From positions 1 to 39,692 of the forward strand of contig CAYIRQ010000001.1 of assembly GCA_964365905.1 (NCBI GenBank): a stretch of DNA of 39,692 nt. The letters run 5' to 3'. Under the pieces are notes generated by a model, which was not told where the DNA came from, did not search any database, and was given only the letters and a program-made list of their open reading frames with translations. This document shows, piece by piece, positions 6,282 through 24,705 of the stretch. The position numbers and the translations under genes are program-made. Each line of letters begins with the position of its first letter. The first letter of the stretch is position 1. Source of the stretch: an uncultured Candidatus Peribacteria bacterium (GTDB lineage: Bacteria > Patescibacteriota > Gracilibacteria > Peribacterales > Peribacteraceae).

Positions 6282-6908
6282 ATGCTGAGCTCGACGAAGC
6301 ATCTCCGCGCCATCCTTCTCGGCCTCGTCTCGCTTCTCTTCGGCCTTTTCCTGGCCGCATTCCTCATCAGCGTGCTCTTTGTACTTTCAAAGTTCGAGGG
6401 AACGGCGCATGGGGAAATTCCAAAGGGTGAGAATGCCTGCGCGCTCGTCTTTGGATCTGCAATTAAGAAAACAGGGGAGCCGGGGCCTGCGATTGTGCGT
6501 CGTGTCGCCGCCGCAGTGGATCTTTATGAAGAGGGGAATGTGGGGACACTCATCATGAGTGGGGGGAGGGGAAAGGGGATTTCTATGAGTGAAGCAGCTG
6601 TGATGGGGAGTGTTGCGCGCGATGCGGGAGTTGAGGCAGGAGATATCGTGCTTGAGGAAAAGGCAACATCGACGCTCGAGAACATTAAATTTGCTCAGGG
6701 TGCCATACGGTCACAGTGTACGTTCGTCCTCGGTGTGAGCGATCGGTATCACCTCGCACGGATCGAACTCCTCGCATGGCGGCTTGACGTACCCCTGAGA
6801 ACATATTCCGCCGGCGGCCCAGAGAATCCGCTCCTCGAAATGAAAGATATCGTTCGCGAAGCGATGGCGATCGTGTATTACCTGCCGTTTCTGATTTGGA
6901 GTTTCTGA
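6282..6908 (+). CDS. YdcF/SanA-type DUF218 domain membrane protein
   Basis: An ATG at 6282 lies just after the upstream stop at 6276. An N-terminal TM segment is followed by ALVFGSAIKKTGEPGPAIVRRVAAAVDLYEEGNVGTLIMSGGRG…SEAAVM…A…GV…DIVLEEKATSTLENI…VSDRYHLARI, the DUF218 pattern. Confidence 0.8.
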   Translation: MLSSTKHLRAILLGLVSLLFGLFLAAFLISVLFVLSKFEGTAHGEIPKGENACALVFGSAIKKTGEPGPAIVRRVAAAVDLYEEGNVGTLIMSGGRGKGISMSEAAVMGSVARDAGVEAGDIVLEEKATSTLENIKFAQGAIRSQCTFVLGVSDRYHLARIELLAWRLDVPLRTYSAGGPENPLLEMKDIVREAMAIVYYLPFLIWSF

Positions 6909-6985
6909 ATCGTACAGTGTACAAATTGCCCCTATTTTATGATCTGTCGAGCGTTTATTCCTCACCTCTGTGGAAAAGGGAGATG

Positions 6986-7013
6986 TGTTAACATAAAATG
7001 CATTATGTTAACT
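6986..7013. other. dif-like Xer recombination site (11-6-11)
   Basis: The sequence is TGTTAACATAA-AATGCA-TTATGTTAACT. The arms are inverted repeats (10/11). The right arm matches the E. coli dif XerD arm TTATGTTAAAT (from memory) at 10/11, and the inner left arm CATAA is also shared. It lies 18 nt upstream of the xer ATG. Confidence 0.6.
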
Positions 7014-7031
7014 AATTAGTTTTCAACAGAT

Positions 7032-7961
7032 ATGTCTAAAACCTCTCCCCTCGCCCGTGCAGTTGATCGCTATCTCCTGCACCTCGAGTCCGAGCTCGGG
7101 AAATCGCCGCTCACGGTGAAGAACTATGCGCACCAGCTCAAAGACTTCCTTTCTGCCGTAACCATCTCCTCCCCTCTCAAAATAGATAAGAAGGTCGTGC
7201 AACTCTATAAACAGCATCTGCATCGGTTTGAGAACAGAGATGGCACGCAGCTCACCGTGCGCACGAGGAATCACCGTCTCACGGTCCTTCGAGCGTTCTT
7301 GCGGTATCTGATCCAGGAGGAAGAACTTGATGTCTACCCACCGGACCGTGTTCAACGCTTAAAAGAAGACCCTCGACAAGTAAAGGTTCTCTTTATCGAG
7401 GAGGTCGAGAGTCTTCTTGATTCACCAAACACAGGTACTCTTGCCGGAAAGCGGGACAAGGCTATCCTCGAGCTCTTTTTCAGTACAGGCCTTCGTCTTG
7501 CAGAACTCCGAAGCCTCAATCGGAAGGACCTCAACTTCACAACGAGGGAAATCAGTGTTCGCGGAAAGCGTGGGAAGATCCGACTCGTTTTTGTATCTGA
7601 TCGAGCCGCAGCGACTCTCAAGGACTACCTTCAAGGCCGCATTGATCATCTCTATCCCCTCTTCATCCGCAATCTCACGCGGACGCAGCATATTCTCCCG
7701 CCGGGGGAAGAATATCGTCTGTCCCGTATTAGCATTTACAAGATTGTGAAGAAATACGCGCTGAAAGCAGGGATTGTTTCGGATCCATCACCACATACTC
7801 TGCGTCATAGCTTTGCAACAGACTTATTGCGAAATGGAGCGGATTTGCGATCGGTGCAGGAATTGCTTGGACACAAAGACCTAAGTACAACACAGATATA
7901 TACTCACGTTACGAATCCCCAACTGAAGGAGGTACATAAGAAATTTCACAGGAAGATTTAA
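7032..7961 (+). CDS. tyrosine recombinase, XerC/XerD family
   Basis: 309 aa. It has an N-terminal SAM-like core-binding domain (…LSPLTVKNYAHQLKDFL…). The catalytic C-terminus reads …GLRLAELRSL… HTLRHSFATDLLRNGADLRSVQELLGHKDLSTTQIYTHV, carrying the R…HxxR…H…Y residues. Confidence 0.9.
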   Translation: MSKTSPLARAVDRYLLHLESELGKSPLTVKNYAHQLKDFLSAVTISSPLKIDKKVVQLYKQHLHRFENRDGTQLTVRTRNHRLTVLRAFLRYLIQEEELDVYPPDRVQRLKEDPRQVKVLFIEEVESLLDSPNTGTLAGKRDKAILELFFSTGLRLAELRSLNRKDLNFTTREISVRGKRGKIRLVFVSDRAAATLKDYLQGRIDHLYPLFIRNLTRTQHILPPGEEYRLSRISIYKIVKKYALKAGIVSDPSPHTLRHSFATDLLRNGADLRSVQELLGHKDLSTTQIYTHVTNPQLKEVHKKFHRKI

Positions 7962-7973
7962 CTTGCTAATTCT

Positions 7974-8408
7974 ATGGAAAAAGCTCGTCGCGGCATGATC
8001 GGCATATACCAATTGAAAAACGTGAAAACCGGAGAATGTTTCATTGGATCCTCTCCAAGCATTTGTAATCATTTCAAAAAACATTTAGGCAAACTTGCCC
8101 TTGGAGAGCATCCGAATACAAGTCTCCAGCAGCAATGGGACAGAGATGGAGCAGAAAGCTTTGAATTTGTATTTTTGGAGATCGCAGCGAATAAATATAC
8201 CCTTCGCGAGCGAGAGGATTATTGGCTGCAAAAGACTCAGGGAGTTCGGATTGGTGATGAGCATCAATATGCTCACGATTATGCTGATGGAGTCGGGAGA
8301 CTGACAATTTCGAAGGATTTGAAAGAGTCTCTGAAGCAGCTCGGTATTGGGAGTATGGATAACACTGCTCGTTCATTAATTCTTTTCTATAAACAGACTT
8401 CATTATGA
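7974..8408 (+). CDS. GIY-YIG nuclease domain protein (copy 1)
   Basis: GIYQLKNVKTGECFIGSS…HLGKL…REREDYWLQKT carries the GIY…(Y/F)IG…R…E signature of small GIY-YIG (homing-endonuclease-like) proteins. The region is AT-rich. The stop overlaps the next start (ATGA at 8405-8408). Confidence 0.8.
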   Translation: MEKARRGMIGIYQLKNVKTGECFIGSSPSICNHFKKHLGKLALGEHPNTSLQQQWDRDGAESFEFVFLEIAANKYTLREREDYWLQKTQGVRIGDEHQYAHDYADGVGRLTISKDLKESLKQLGIGSMDNTARSLILFYKQTSL

Positions 8409-8851
8409 ATGCCCCATCTCTCAAAGGTATTTATCAGATCAAGAATGTCCTTACTGGTGAGTGTTACATTGGTTCTTCTTTCAACATTCAAAGGAGATTG
8501 GCCGACCATATGAGATATTTGTCAGATGGAGTGCATATCAATAAAATGCTGCAGGGATCATGGAAAAAATATGGATCAGAGAATTTTACAATTTCGATTC
8601 TGGAAATTGTTGGAGATGATCTTGCTCTCGCTGAAAGAGAGATCTTCTGGGTAAAGAAAACTCGCGCGGAAAAAGACGGATTTAATACAAAGACTGATCA
8701 ACACAAATATTCCTCTGTTATTGTAGTTAATCTAACCACGAAGTTTGAGTTGGAAAGCTTAGGCATGGGGTCAATGCAGTCGACATTAAGTCAACTTCTG
8801 AAGTTTTATCAGAAGCAGCATGGCAGTAAGCCCACTACTGAACGATTATGA
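8405..8851 (+). CDS. GIY-YIG nuclease domain protein (copy 2, tandem paralog)
   Basis: GIYQIKNVLTGECYIGSSFNIQRRLADH…AEREIFWVKKT is a textbook GIY-YIG. The C-terminal tail LESLGMGSMQSTLSQLLKFYQKQ parallels LKQLGIGSMDNTARSLILFYKQ of copy 1. There is an ATGA overlap with the next gene at 8848-8851. Confidence 0.85.
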   Translation: MNAPSLKGIYQIKNVLTGECYIGSSFNIQRRLADHMRYLSDGVHINKMLQGSWKKYGSENFTISILEIVGDDLALAEREIFWVKKTRAEKDGFNTKTDQHKYSSVIVVNLTTKFELESLGMGSMQSTLSQLLKFYQKQHGSKPTTERL

Positions 8852-9384
8852 GAATCAGATTTTTCAATTTAATTGTAAGTCTTCGAAAGATTCCGGCTTG
8901 TAGAGCCAGATATCCCCAACAGGCCGCATCCTTTATCGGTTTATATGAAAAACCGATGCTGGGTCAATGCGCTTCTGTGTTAGAAGAGCTGGCAAAAAAA
9001 TCGCGCGATGCATCGTGGCTACTCAAGAACTTGTTTATTGAGGGTTTCCTCATACACGCGAGGAATGTTCGAGATTTTTTGTTCAATCCTCCCGTGAACT
9101 GGAATGACGATATTGTCGCAGCGGATTACCTGACATCTTGGAATAAAAAAATAAAGAAAGAGTGCAAGTTTCTCCACTCTAAAAAAGCCCAGATAGATCG
9201 ATCTGCACTACATCTGTCATACTCACGCATAGATTACGAAAGTAAGGGAAAGTTGGAGATCGAAGATTGCCTCAGAATTAATGGTGAGTTGGAGATAGTA
9301 TGGTGTGAATTCTGGGCGAGATTGCCGGATGAGAAGCGCAGATGGTTTTTAGAGAGGAATGAATGGTCCCCTCCGGCCTCGTAA
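8848..9384 (+). CDS. hypothetical protein (no recognisable family)
   Basis: 178-aa ORF translationally coupled to the GIY-YIG pair, with the same AT-rich composition. Sequence includes …WLLKNLFIEGFLIHARNVRDFLFNPP…IDRSALHLSYSRIDYE…. An alternative ATG lies at 8956. It ends inside a terminator hairpin. Confidence 0.6.
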   Translation: MRIRFFNLIVSLRKIPACRARYPQQAASFIGLYEKPMLGQCASVLEELAKKSRDASWLLKNLFIEGFLIHARNVRDFLFNPPVNWNDDIVAADYLTSWNKKIKKECKFLHSKKAQIDRSALHLSYSRIDYESKGKLEIEDCLRINGELEIVWCEFWARLPDEKRRWFLERNEWSPPAS

Positions 9385-22119: not shown

Positions 22120-22221
22120 GGAATCTCTGATTAATGCCGACATCGGAGCGCGGATTCGGCTATCCGCGCTCCGCAGCGCAGGTAACCGAACCTGCGCTGC
22201 GGTTGATCAGAGGTTCCTTAA
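22116..22221 (+). other. 106-nt inverted-repeat / three-way-junction element (MITE-like or structured 3'UTR RNA)
   Basis: A 19-bp outer stem pairs 22116-22134 with 22203-22221 (two G.U pairs on the + strand only). It encloses two perfect 10-bp hairpins: 22145-22172 GGAGCGCGGA(TTCGGCTA)TCCGCGCTCC and 22173-22200 GCAGCGCAGG(TAACCGAA)CCTGCGCTGC. Confidence 0.5.
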
Positions 22222-22303
22222 CCCTTTCCCTTCAAGGTTGTGCTTCAGCGTGTCAAAGACGTGCTCTTGCTACACAACGACGGAAATCGCCGGACATTCT
22301 CCC

Positions 22304-22333
22304 GTTAGCCGGCGGTTTAAACCGCCGGCTAAC
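22304..22333. terminator. perfect 30-nt palindrome, possible tkt terminator (no U-tract)
   Basis: GTTAGCCGGCGGTTTAAACCGCCGGCTAAC is a 13-bp stem with a 4-nt loop. It lies 45 nt downstream of the tkt stop, between convergent genes. No T-run follows on either strand. Confidence 0.4.
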
Positions 22334-22377: not shown

Positions 22378-24705
22378 CTAGAACCCCTCCCTCAATGCTT
22401 CCGCATTCGGCAATTTTCCGGGCGGACACGCTCTTTTTTTCCAGAACGTCCGAAGATCCTCAATATATTTCCCCCTCCCCTTGAGCTCCTGAATGAACGG
22501 GAGAATGGAGGGCCCGAAGCGACTCAAGGATGCGCTGCGCTTGATGGTCGAGAGCACTGTCACGAGAACGTCTTCCCCTCCGCAGACTTCCGCATGCACT
22601 TCATCGAGGACGGCATCGGCAATACTTTCGGCATCGAGTCCCGCGAGAGCGCGCAAATCTTTATCGGAACCGGAGGGGAAATAGTGATTCACACCGAGGC
22701 GGCGAAGCGAACACGGCAACTGAAAATCGGCGATGACATCGGCTACCTGTGTCGCAAGACCTCCTTCGCTACAGTGATCTTCGACGACGATGAGATGCGC
22801 GGTTTCGAGTGCCGCTCGAATGATTGCAGTGGCATCCAGGGGGCGAATGCAGGGTACATTGAGCACGCGAACCTGCTCATGATGCTCCTGCTGCAACGCA
22901 TCCGCGGCTGCGAGCGCTTCATGGACTTCGATGCCGGTTGTGATGATGGTTGCTTGATCCGTGAGATCCCCTCTGCCACGCAGCAGGTCAGCTTTTCCTT
23001 CAAAGACGTAATTCTCCGAAAAGAATGGCTTTCCATTATCTATTAAAACCTGTGGATGTCCGCTCCGTGGGAAGAAGATGTACACACTCGTCGTGCCTTC
23101 TGCAATAAACTCCAAAGCCTTCTCGGCCATCGCGGCCGCTTGATTACTGTCACATGGCATCCAGACCTGCGTGTGATCGAAGGGAATATTGAGATAATGT
23201 CGTTCTTGGTGTGTTTCGCCGTCTTCCCCGACGGAAATACCGGCATGCGTGCAATCGTGGAGTACCGCGCATCGCGTGTGACCGCAGTTGATATCAATGA
23301 GGCGCGCATTTGCGCGCGCTTCATTCGTTCCGAACGCCGCAAAGGTGTATGTGACGGGGAGCAGTCCCGACTGACGCAGACCGGCAGCCATCATGTACAT
23401 GTTCGCTTCTGCAACGCCCACGTTGATCACGCGCGCAGGTGCAAGCGAGGTCGAACCTCCCTCAGAGAGAGCCATCGCCACTTTCTCAAATCCTCCCGAT
23501 CCTGCGAGATCTGCATGGAGGACGATGATGCGAGGATCTACCTTCATCAGATTTTTGATGTGGACTGCCCCAAAATCTGTTCGTGCCGATCCTTTACCTG
23601 CAGTGATCGTTCGCGCAACCTTCGGCGGCGGTGGCAATGGTTTTGCAATCTGAGATCTGAAATCTGAATTCCTCTTCCGATGTTTCTCATATTTCTTCAC
23701 AAGCTCCTCAAGTGACGGAAGTTCATTCAGCGCTGCTGCAGCAACCTCCTCCTTGAGCGGCGTCCCATGGAAATTCTCTTTCCCTGTATTGCTCCCCTGC
23801 TCCATGAGCGGAACACCGTGCCCCATCGTGGTGTAATAGCAGAGGAATGTCGGAATTCCTCTTTCCGTTTCCCCATGTTCTTTCCGGAGCGTATCTGCAA
23901 GGTCGAGCGCTGCGAGCACCTGACCCGGATCGTTCCCATTCTGCACTTCGATCACGTTCCAACCCGTAGCTGCAGCGATGCGTGCAAAGTCGGCGATGAC
24001 CGTCTTTGAGGGGAGATCGGAGAGCTGTACGTCATTCCAATCGCCATGCACGAGGAGATTACTCAGGGCGAGTCGCGGAGCAAGTCGGAATGCTTCCATC
24101 ACCTGACCTTCCTGAGAATCGCCGTCCGCGAGCAGAACATCGACGACTCCGGGCTTTTTCTGATACTGGAGGCCCAGCGCAACGCCGAGACCGTTCGAAA
24201 CTCCCTTTCCAAGCGGCCCCGCTCCGAATGGAATGGATCCGATGCCAGCCTCCGCATGCCCGGGTAAACCGTTCGGCGTTCGAAATGTATCGATGATTAC
24301 CTGCGGAGACTGGAGACGAGGATCATCTCCTTCCCTTCCGAACAACCACTCAAGTCCATACGCGAGAAGTGAAAGATGACCTGCGCTCATGCGGAGGGGT
24401 TCGTCGATTGCAAGATTTCTCCGCACGTTCAGAAAGTAGGCAAAGGTGAAAGAAGAGAGCGGTCCACCCGGATGCCCGGATTGATGCTTCGTCGGAGCCT
24501 GAATGCAGAGATGCGCCATGATCTGCTGCGCGAGGCTGTACGCTTCTTTCTCTTCCTTCGGCAACTCCTTCGCGCATCCAGGTCCAATCCAGTGCATGGC
24601 TCCTTCCTGCGATGCGCCGATCACCCGCTGCAGAGACATCGGAACATCCTTCGGGTCTTTGCCGATGAGAGCCGATGGAGGCGGACGTGAGGACACAGGC
24701 GGCAA
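22378..24705 (-). CDS. tkt: transketolase (single-chain)
   Basis: 775-aa ORF. Motifs include …SGHPGGPLSS…, …LLADGDSQEGQVMEA…, …HGDWNDVQLS…, …HADLAGSGG… and …GISVGEDGETHQ…, which are transketolase TPP and pyrimidine-binding motifs. The start may be the internal ATG at 24639. Confidence 0.9.
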   Translation of the reverse strand: MPPVSSRPPPSALIGKDPKDVPMSLQRVIGASQEGAMHWIGPGCAKELPKEEKEAYSLAQQIMAHLCIQAPTKHQSGHPGGPLSSFTFAYFLNVRRNLAIDEPLRMSAGHLSLLAYGLEWLFGREGDDPRLQSPQVIIDTFRTPNGLPGHAEAGIGSIPFGAGPLGKGVSNGLGVALGLQYQKKPGVVDVLLADGDSQEGQVMEAFRLAPRLALSNLLVHGDWNDVQLSDLPSKTVIADFARIAAATGWNVIEVQNGNDPGQVLAALDLADTLRKEHGETERGIPTFLCYYTTMGHGVPLMEQGSNTGKENFHGTPLKEEVAAAALNELPSLEELVKKYEKHRKRNSDFRSQIAKPLPPPPKVARTITAGKGSARTDFGAVHIKNLMKVDPRIIVLHADLAGSGGFEKVAMALSEGGSTSLAPARVINVGVAEANMYMMAAGLRQSGLLPVTYTFAAFGTNEARANARLIDINCGHTRCAVLHDCTHAGISVGEDGETHQERHYLNIPFDHTQVWMPCDSNQAAAMAEKALEFIAEGTTSVYIFFPRSGHPQVLIDNGKPFFSENYVFEGKADLLRGRGDLTDQATIITTGIEVHEALAAADALQQEHHEQVRVLNVPCIRPLDATAIIRAALETAHLIVVEDHCSEGGLATQVADVIADFQLPCSLRRLGVNHYFPSGSDKDLRALAGLDAESIADAVLDEVHAEVCGGEDVLVTVLSTIKRSASLSRFGPSILPFIQELKGRGKYIEDLRTFWKKRACPPGKLPNAEALREGF

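Follow-up and report, generated by a model that had tools for sequence, protein, structure and literature searches.

The window, the whole stretch of 39,692 nucleotides analysed here, is all of contig C1 in a 1.21 Mb assembly of 119 contigs that is estimated to be 97% complete. Within it, a 123-bp intergenic gap with a G+C content of 35% houses a 28-bp near-palindrome, which stands in front of a gene for a tyrosine recombinase. The features of this core region are as follows.

6986..7013, no strand: candidate dif site, with left arm 6986-6996 (TGTTAACATAA), central region 6997-7002 (AATGCA) and right arm 7003-7013 (TTATGTTAACT)
7032..7961, plus strand: xer, a 309-aa XerD-like tyrosine recombinase (Pfam PF00589, 7.5e-43, and PF02899)
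7974..9384, plus strand: variable low-GC cargo at the tail of xer, with two GIY-YIG nuclease genes (7974-8408 and 8405-8851) and a 178-aa ORF (8848-9384), as assigned with Pfam/NCBIfam

Positions 6986-7013 read exactly TGTTAACATAAAATGCATTATGTTAACT, that is TGTTAACATAA-AATGCA-TTATGTTAACT, which bears out the 11-6-11 dif layout that the original prediction had proposed from the letters of the DNA. Its particulars are borne out as well: the arms pair as inverted repeats at 10/11 positions, 18 nt lie between the end of the site and the xer ATG at 7032, and the inner left CATAA belongs to a core, CATAA...TTATGTTAA, that is shared with Escherichia coli. The XerD arm that it had quoted is correct, and the right arm matches this arm at 10/11 positions in the E. 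coli K-12 dif, printed as GGTGCGCATAATGTATATTATGTTAAAT (PMC2731167). Over the full length, 19 of the 28 positions are identical to E. coli dif.

Palindromy by itself is unexceptional: where 0.4 would be expected, the window has five inverted repeats of the 11-6-11 form that match at 10/11 positions or more, the other four being GC-rich hairpins. What exceeds chance is the dif-like sequence together with its conservation. Between convergent genes at 22145-22332 stand three perfect 11-6-11 palindromes rich in G+C, with a fourth at 23297-23324. An Rfam search of these palindromes at 22.1-23.3 kb matched no family, and they are probably terminator or REP-like hairpins. The candidate site has the form by which dif sites are recognized, with about 28-31 bp and two inverted arms round a centre of 6-8 (up to 11) bp, and it shares their further properties of sequence kinship with known dif, a non-coding position, a G+C content below that of the genome (21% for the site vs 55% for the contig) and a single copy. 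The genome-wide count suggested at the outset gave one match in 1.21 Mb with up to three mismatches allowed over both arms, as expected for dif.

The product of xer consists of a Phage_integrase domain and a SAM-like N-terminal domain, and it is the only PF00589 protein encoded in its own, 97% complete genome. Nine of 13 near-complete relatives likewise have one PF00589 gene, and the remainder have additional integrase-like genes. The protein scores below the equivalog cut-off of each NCBIfam model considered: XerD TIGR02225 (242.9 bits, cut-off 329.6), XerC TIGR02224 (236 bits, cut-off 335.15), archaeal XerA NF040815 (208.6 bits, cut-off 220) and XerS NF003462 (110 bits, cut-off 267). The closest PDB chain is E. 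coli XerD (1a0p, 127.9 bits); XerA (4a8e) gives 114 bits and XerH 51.7 bits, where closeness to XerH is judged by the sequence of the structure 5jjv vs 1a0p. In sequence type the recombinase is hence XerD/XerC/XerA-like, and neither XerS- nor XerH-like. All six catalytic residues (R, K, H-x-x-R, H, Y) align with those of XerD 1a0p. The predicted recognition helix spans residues of about 230-241 (LSRISIYKIVKK), in which I233 aligns with Q221 of XerD (catalytic Tyr279 stands at chain index 277, an offset of +2).

A lone Xer-type recombinase with its site beside the gene is the mark of the single-recombinase class, and the locus was assigned to this class in the original prediction. That assignment is upheld by the presence of a lone tyrosine recombinase in a genome that is 97% complete, by the single copy of the site and by a gene-site pairing kept in every close orthologue. 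On the sequence evidence as a whole, we consider it highly probable (about 0.9) that a single XerD-like recombinase of a Candidatus Peribacteria bacterium (Peregrinibacteria, candidate phyla radiation, CPR) uses the near-palindrome as its dif site. The proposed role of the site and the lone Xer is very probably ordinary housekeeping, in which joined sister chromosomes are separated.

Conservation of the pairing and co-variation of arms and recombinase

Conservation of the site with its gene was a check that the original prediction had called for, and the pairing is kept. Across about 90 Peribacteria genomes, every close Xer orthologue has a site 37-350 nt upstream. In 61 genomes of the same family, all 45 orthologues with at least 63% identity (45 genera) carry an 11-6-11 site 37-267 nt upstream, and in a second scan, of named genomes, so do 54/54 close orthologues for which upstream DNA is present, at 37-350 nt; the two sets share members. 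The site is found upstream of 0/24 distant CPR Xer genes (43-50% identity). A search with the 20-mer core across the family returns essentially one strong match in each genome. To the left, the order of a 430-aa gene, a DUF218 gene, the site and xer is syntenic at about 40 loci, and the genes 3' of xer differ between relatives.

This synteny bears on the reading of the 28 bp as the att site of an integrated mobile element, or as an IMEX mimic of dif, with xer as its integrase and the low-GC GIY-YIG stretch as its cargo. Such a reading gains from the G+C content, which falls to 39-50% over xer and the three genes behind it, from an IS200-like gene nearby, and from the fact that mobile DNA commonly gathers in terminus regions (PMC2731167). 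However, a second full site or half-site was not found within the window, the order of the 430-aa gene, DUF218, site and xer is shared in about 40 genera and only the genes behind xer differ, and Xer is the sole recombinase, with a gene-site pairing that holds through the whole Xer tree. An element would also leave the convergence of polar words on the site, described below, unexplained, and we consider this reading most unlikely. The cargo at 7974-9384 (G+C 0.39-0.43 vs 0.55) is no part of the dif/Xer mechanism and occupies a variable slot at the tail of xer; the GIY-YIG genes, the 178-aa ORF and the IS200-like gene are all of low G+C and occur in 0-3 relatives.

Several loci depart from the common arrangement. 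At L231 the dif core is flipped relative to xer (TTAACATAA-TGCATT-TTATGTT), the sole such case in about 90 sites. At L104, L105, L119 and L123, insertions of 100-200 nt that are hairpin or MITE-like (e.g. GTCACCCTGAGCTTGTCGAAGGGC) stand between the start of xer and the site with its flank motif. At L015 (G011) and L020 (G001), the full site is followed on its 3' side by a second right arm, 9 nt and TGTGGAAAA, and this extra right-arm copy could have been left behind by an integration or duplication at dif. In 14 of the 61 family genomes (G002, G004, G007, G008, G012, G042, G051, G052, G062, G065, G066, G072-G074), the only Xer is 41-46% identical and has no adjacent site; a pattern search for the dif of these 14 genomes gave matches no commoner than in a reversed control, and a convincing palindrome was not found.

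The arms of the site fall into three types, each of which is paired with its own residue at position 233 of Xer.

AACAT arm type: TTAACATAA ... TTATGTTAA, 63 sites, residue 233 = I or V (63/63)
AAGAT arm type: TCAAGATAA ... TTATCTTGA, 15 sites and 2 hybrids, residue 233 = N (17/17)
CGTAT arm type: TTCGTATAA ... TTATACGAA, 6 sites, residue 233 = R (6/6)

The two arms switch type jointly, and hybrids make up 2 of 86 distinct sites. In a maximum-likelihood (ML) tree of Xer, the CGTAT type forms one clade (support 100/99), to which the Xer of the window is sister, and the AAGAT type requires at least six changes on well-supported branches, with N233 found in 6/6 AAGAT lineages. Residues 232, 236 and 237 likewise co-vary with arm type. 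The arm positions that vary among the types are 22-25; in the XerD system, binding specificity was found experimentally to be set by dif positions 23/24, and the XerD structure predicts a contact of Q221 with dif position 24 (PMC2731167). The co-variation of arm type with residue 233, at the position of XerD Q221, argues strongly, if indirectly, for one Xer protein reading both arms of the site. Residue 233 changes between I, N and R in step with both half-sites, at least six times from I to N, which offers a natural test of outer-arm reading by recombinases of the Xer/Cre type, and the pairing of residue and arm could guide the retargeting of tyrosine recombinases.

The CGTAT sites, which read ACTTCGTATA-AAATGCAT-TATACGAAGT, share 10/13 bases with each arm of loxP, with an 8-bp spacer. 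These loxP-like sites occur at L112 (G056), L102 (G075), L193, L198, L235 and L242, where they are paired with Arg at Xer residue 233.

Polar words, GC skew and the position of the terminus

Identification of a dif site also relies on the convergence of strand-biased words of the KOPS type. In the relative G024, an unsupervised ranking of strand-skewed 8-mers yields GGGGAGGG-type words, whose polarity extremes lie at 362-373 kb, where the site is at 366.2 kb, and at 1.157-1.160 Mb, the locus of DnaA boxes and dnaN. The words defined in G024 were tried on three other genera.

G022:C8: site at 355,852; G-rich word maximum at 353.5-355.7 kb; cumulative GC-skew maximum at 355,889
G056:C7: site at about 155.6 kb; G-rich word maximum at 155,551-155,556; cumulative GC-skew maximum at 130,773
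G076:C1: site at 250,967; AGGGGA maximum at 249,011; cumulative GC-skew maximum at 275,682

In a leave-one-genome-out design, each sequence was examined blind with the 20 top-ranking words of the remaining genomes, and p values were obtained by permutation. The switch in polarity falls at the following distances from the site.

G076: 220 bp before the site, p = 0.002
G056: 46 bp before the site, p = 0.0005
G022: 159 bp before the site, p < 0.0005
G024: 338 bp before the site, p < 0.0005
Window: 427 bp before the site, p = 0.03

In the window as in four relatives, the site thus lies where KOPS-type words converge. Polarity is highest in AGAGGGGA (82%), AGGGGAGT (84%) and AGGGGATT (83%), which share an AGGGGA core and each rank first among words of the same composition (mean 54-56%, sd 7%); overall G/(G+C) on the strand of the polar words is only 0.509. 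An orientation of 70-84% is a moderate bias. In the window, AGGGGA occurs on the plus and minus strands at 8:1 left of the site and at 12:28 right of it (Fisher p = 0.002), and two of the polar-word positions stand close to the site on either side.

6559..6581, plus strand: polar-word cluster GGGGGGAGGGGAAAGGGGATT, in which GGGGAGGG, two copies of AGGGGA and AGGGGATT overlap; aimed at the site from the left and marking the blind switch of the window
7042..7052, minus strand: first polar (KOPS-like) word right of the site, CCTCTCCCCTC, read on the minus strand as GAGGGGAGAGG; inside the opening codons of xer and aimed at the site

A C-rich run 3' of the site in most relatives is the same kind of polar word on the bottom strand. 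The genome of the window encodes an FtsK gamma domain (PF09397, 87 bits, at G000:C112:2470-2649 in a 789-aa frame), and the domain is also encoded in 7/7 relatives tested. The words are read as KOPS-like because their polarity converges on the site, because this polarity is motif-specific and because FtsK gamma is encoded. In this respect the AGGGGA-core words appear to behave like FtsK-orienting polar sequences converging on dif, and their polarity suggests that FtsK gamma would bind the polar word and activate Xer. FtsK-orienting words known so far are G-rich and aimed at dif, such as KOPS, GGGNAGGG, in E. coli (PMC5357621). In practice, the site and the AGGGGA-core words can serve for orienting Peribacteria MAG scaffolds and verifying them, and for locating the terminus in cases of weak GC skew.

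The convergence of polar words in the window and four relatives, together with the GC skew of G022, speaks for a probable location of the site at the terminus. The distance between the cumulative GC-skew maximum and the site is 37 bp in G022, 25 kb in G056 and G076 and 123 kb in G024. In the window, where the skew is weak and noisy, the maximum lies at 19.8 kb and not at 7 kb. Contig G024:C1 (1.377 Mb) also has a weak GC skew, with a cumulative maximum at 490 kb on a plateau of 325-500 kb, and generic leading-strand words trained far from the site switch at 507-525 kb in this genome, tracking the GC skew and not dif. Both the skew maximum and the generic-word switch are about 125-160 kb off the site, so in G024 the specific word family is partly uncoupled from mutational skew. 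Mutational skew is treated here apart from the motif-specific words because the generic words switch at 507-525 kb. The meeting point of the replication forks and dif may be uncoupled in some genomes (G024:C1, G056:C7, G076:C1).

Gene orientation was dropped as a marker of the terminus, since the gene-strand bias round the site is close to 50:50 in all four contigs. The flip in orientation near 9.4 kb, which the original prediction had taken as a hint of the terminus, is real and, with the strand bias near 50:50 around the site, uninformative on this point.

The dnaA gene lies 28-97 kb from dif in 9/9 family genomes that have both on one contig (G024, G010, G011, G001, G022, G056, G067, G076, G064). 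In these nine genomes dnaN lies either on another contig or, in G024, 794 kb off beside the DnaA-box cluster. The coordinates on G024:C1 are 338450 for dnaA, 366221 for the site and 1159865-1161455 for the DnaA boxes and dnaN, so that 794 kb of the 1.377 Mb contig separate the site from the DnaA-box/dnaN locus. This cluster, the sole one in G024, comprises six boxes within 1 kb (1,159,865-1,160,176) directly upstream of dnaN in the region of the skew minimum. As dnaA is near dif and far from the DnaA-box/dnaN locus, it is no origin marker in this family, and its placement warns against annotating origins by dnaA in Peribacteria genomes.

The mirror image of the terminus model would place the replication origin at the site, AT-rich and flanked by DnaA boxes close to dnaA, in a lineage with reversed skews. 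The distance of dnaA (28-97 kb), the DnaA-box-like 9-mers flanking the site and the tendency of G024 genes near the site to point away from it can all be read in this way. It would need a C-rich leading strand, against the general rule, and the only real DnaA-box cluster of G024 adjoins dnaN, 794 kb off, at the opposite switch in polarity. Along the long arm of G024 from 366 kb to 1.16 Mb, eight of nine marker genes found by motif (rpoB, rpoC, S12, L3, atpB, secA, gyrB and dnaK; EF-Tu differs) point the same way as replication from 1.16 Mb and would run head-on to replication from the site. Known FtsK-orienting words are moreover G-rich and directed to dif (PMC5357621), and the sequence itself is that of dif, beside xer. 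The model is hardly credible and was rejected because the DnaA boxes and dnaN occupy the opposite pole and because neither the sign of the skew nor the direction of highly expressed genes fits it.

With the site as the probable dif at the terminus, a mechanism can be proposed. The lone XerD-like recombinase would bind both near-identical arms, with two monomers at each site and four in the synapse of two sister sites, and strand exchange across the AATGCA central region would resolve chromosome dimers. The helix round residue 233, the equivalent of XerD Q221, would read the outer positions of the arm, 22-25, and the mirrored ones in the left arm. AGGGGA-core words on both chromosome arms would guide a gamma-domain FtsK to the site, where FtsK probably activates recombination at the septum, as in the XerCD, XerS and XerH systems. 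Binding, catalysis and FtsK dependence at the site are predictions of this scheme.

Flanking motifs and the possible control of xer

The immediate flanks of the site contain short motifs that may play a role in the control of xer or of the site.

6969..6977, plus strand: DnaA-box-like 9-mer TGTGGAAAA, reverse complement TTTTCCACA, with one mismatch to TTATCCACA; 8 nt left of the site
6971..6999, plus strand: promoter-like TGGAAA-N17-TAAAAT, overlapping the left arm; 9/12 matches, one found vs 0.4 expected in shuffles
7020..7028, plus strand: putative degenerate inverted copy of the 9-mer, TTTTCAACA, a weak match with two mismatches to TTATCCACA

The original prediction had described a promoter overlapping the site and had suggested autoregulation. 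The sequence TGGAAA-N17-TAAAAT exists as described; as a promoter it is a weak match, at 9/12 and with one found against 0.4 expected. The promoter-like form of the relatives differs, and reads TTGAAT-N17-TATGTT across the site (by eye). Autoregulation of xer through the overlap of site and putative promoter may follow from this arrangement.

Taken to its limit, this argument would make the palindrome an operator only, at which Xer or another dimeric regulator controls xer transcription with no role in dimer resolution. The site stands 18 nt from the start codon and overlaps a promoter-like match, relatives show their own such match (TTGAAT-N17-TATGTT, by eye) across the site, and the co-variation with residue 233 would fit pure autoregulation equally well. 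Against a sole operator, polar words converge less than 0.5 kb away in five sequences, with the GC-skew maximum of G022 37 bp off; the universal dif core is kept, with 19/28 positions identical to E. coli dif; and the site is kept even where insertions of 160-350 nt lie before xer. We consider an operator alone very unlikely, and the site may well serve as an operator in addition to the dif role that we favour.

The DnaA-box-like 9-mer is a widespread companion of the site. As TGTGGAAAA or TGTGGATAA, it is present in 27/45 genera at a spacing of +8/+9 to the right arm and precedes the C-rich run, where the background is about 0.2 boxes/kb; the loci that carry it fall in the range L004-L127. 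Five loci add TTATCCACA or TTTTCCACA at -18 to -20 on the left as an inverted box, and the sister clade (L102, L112) has TTTTCCACA or TTTTCAACA at the equivalent of 7020-7028. The same variant of the 9-mer occurs in the oriC-like cluster of G024, and the 9-mer keeps company with the site where insertions part the site from xer. These matches suggest that DnaA could bind at the flank. Conservation of the 9-mer may be partly translational, because its GTG is the sole in-frame xer start at about 14 loci. On the other side of the site, an 8-bp palindrome, TCAATTGA, adjoins the left arm in most genera.

A tentative and rather doubtful extension of these observations is that the dif of Peribacteraceae forms the centre of a conserved control module. 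It would comprise a DnaA box at fixed spacing on the right, at times a second, inverted box on the left, the TCAATTGA palindrome on the left and a dnaA gene relocated to a distance from dif of 2-8% of the chromosome, while oriC was left with dnaN at the opposite pole. DnaA at the terminus would then couple the initiation status to xer expression or to the access of Xer to dif. If true, DnaA occupancy beside dif would link the initiator with dimer resolution, and we know of no such link from any described bacterial system.

Comparison with known Xer systems

XerC/XerD and dif, with FtsK and KOPS, operate in E. coli and most bacteria (PMC2731167, PMC3025954, PMC5357621). The Peribacteria system shares with them a 28-bp, 11-6-11 site that is low in G+C, non-coding and single-copy, with a CATAA...TTATGTTAA core, and it has a recombinase nearest XerD with identical catalytic residues, an FtsK gamma domain and converging G-rich words. 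In contrast to XerC/XerD, it has one recombinase, both arms are nearly identical and of the XerD-arm type, and the site is fixed beside the gene. The polar words of Peribacteria (AGAGGGGA, AGGGGAGT, AGGGGATT), with their AGGGGA core, also differ from the E. coli KOPS, GGGNAGGG.

The use of a single recombinase is shared with XerS/difSL of streptococci and lactococci and with XerH/difH of Helicobacter and Campylobacter. Both of these systems are located at the terminus and are FtsK-dependent, and FtsK gamma is encoded here. The Peribacteria protein, however, lies outside both families (110 bits vs a cut-off of 267 for XerS; 52 bits for XerH vs 128 for XerD), and difSL, with 31 bp, an 11-bp centre and unequal arms, differs from the canonical 11-6-11 site. 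The archaeal XerA/dif systems (Pyrococcus, Thermoplasma; 4a8e, 5hxy) likewise combine a single XerC/D-like recombinase with a canonical 28-bp dif, and the Peribacteria protein is highly similar to XerA in sequence. Differences from XerA are a score under the XerA cut-off of 220, the presence of FtsK gamma and polar words, and a dif at the junction of polarity. A gene-adjacent dif had been put forward as a hallmark of XerS, XerH and archaeal XerA alike; gene-linked sites are described for XerS and XerH (PMC5357621, PMC2731167), whereas the xerA/dif module is present in some archaea and the linkage of the XerA gene to its site is variable (PMC5357621).

The XerL/dif system of the Legionellales, described by comparative genomics, consists of a single recombinase and a partly palindromic, low-GC dif of about 30 bp near the GC-skew maximum (PMC9765430). 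Both are lineage-specific single-recombinase systems in a lineage thought to be without a described one. XerL is a divergent Xer clade whose gene is not generally adjacent to dif, and it is genetically proven, whereas the dif role of the Peribacteria site is a prediction from sequence. The 'Cand' subgroup of Smyshlyaev et al. (2021) gathers Xer-related simple tyrosine recombinases of candidate phyla that are proposed Xer stand-ins (PMC8138268); that study classifies the proteins only, without a recombination site, its location or a polarity signal. The genome paper of Ca. Peribacter riflensis places origin and terminus by GC skew and leaves Xer, dif and FtsK unmentioned (PMC4736985).

No paper joining dif, Xer and the candidate phyla radiation was found in the literature searched, and the locus provides a concrete, testable system of chromosome dimer resolution for a CPR lineage, none of which is described in that literature. 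Single-recombinase Xer/dif as such is already known, and the Peribacteria case is, for CPR, unpublished in the literature searched. What the case adds to the known systems is the co-variation of residue 233 with the arms, the candidate polar word of Peribacteria and the unusual position of dnaA and DnaA-box-like sites beside dif.
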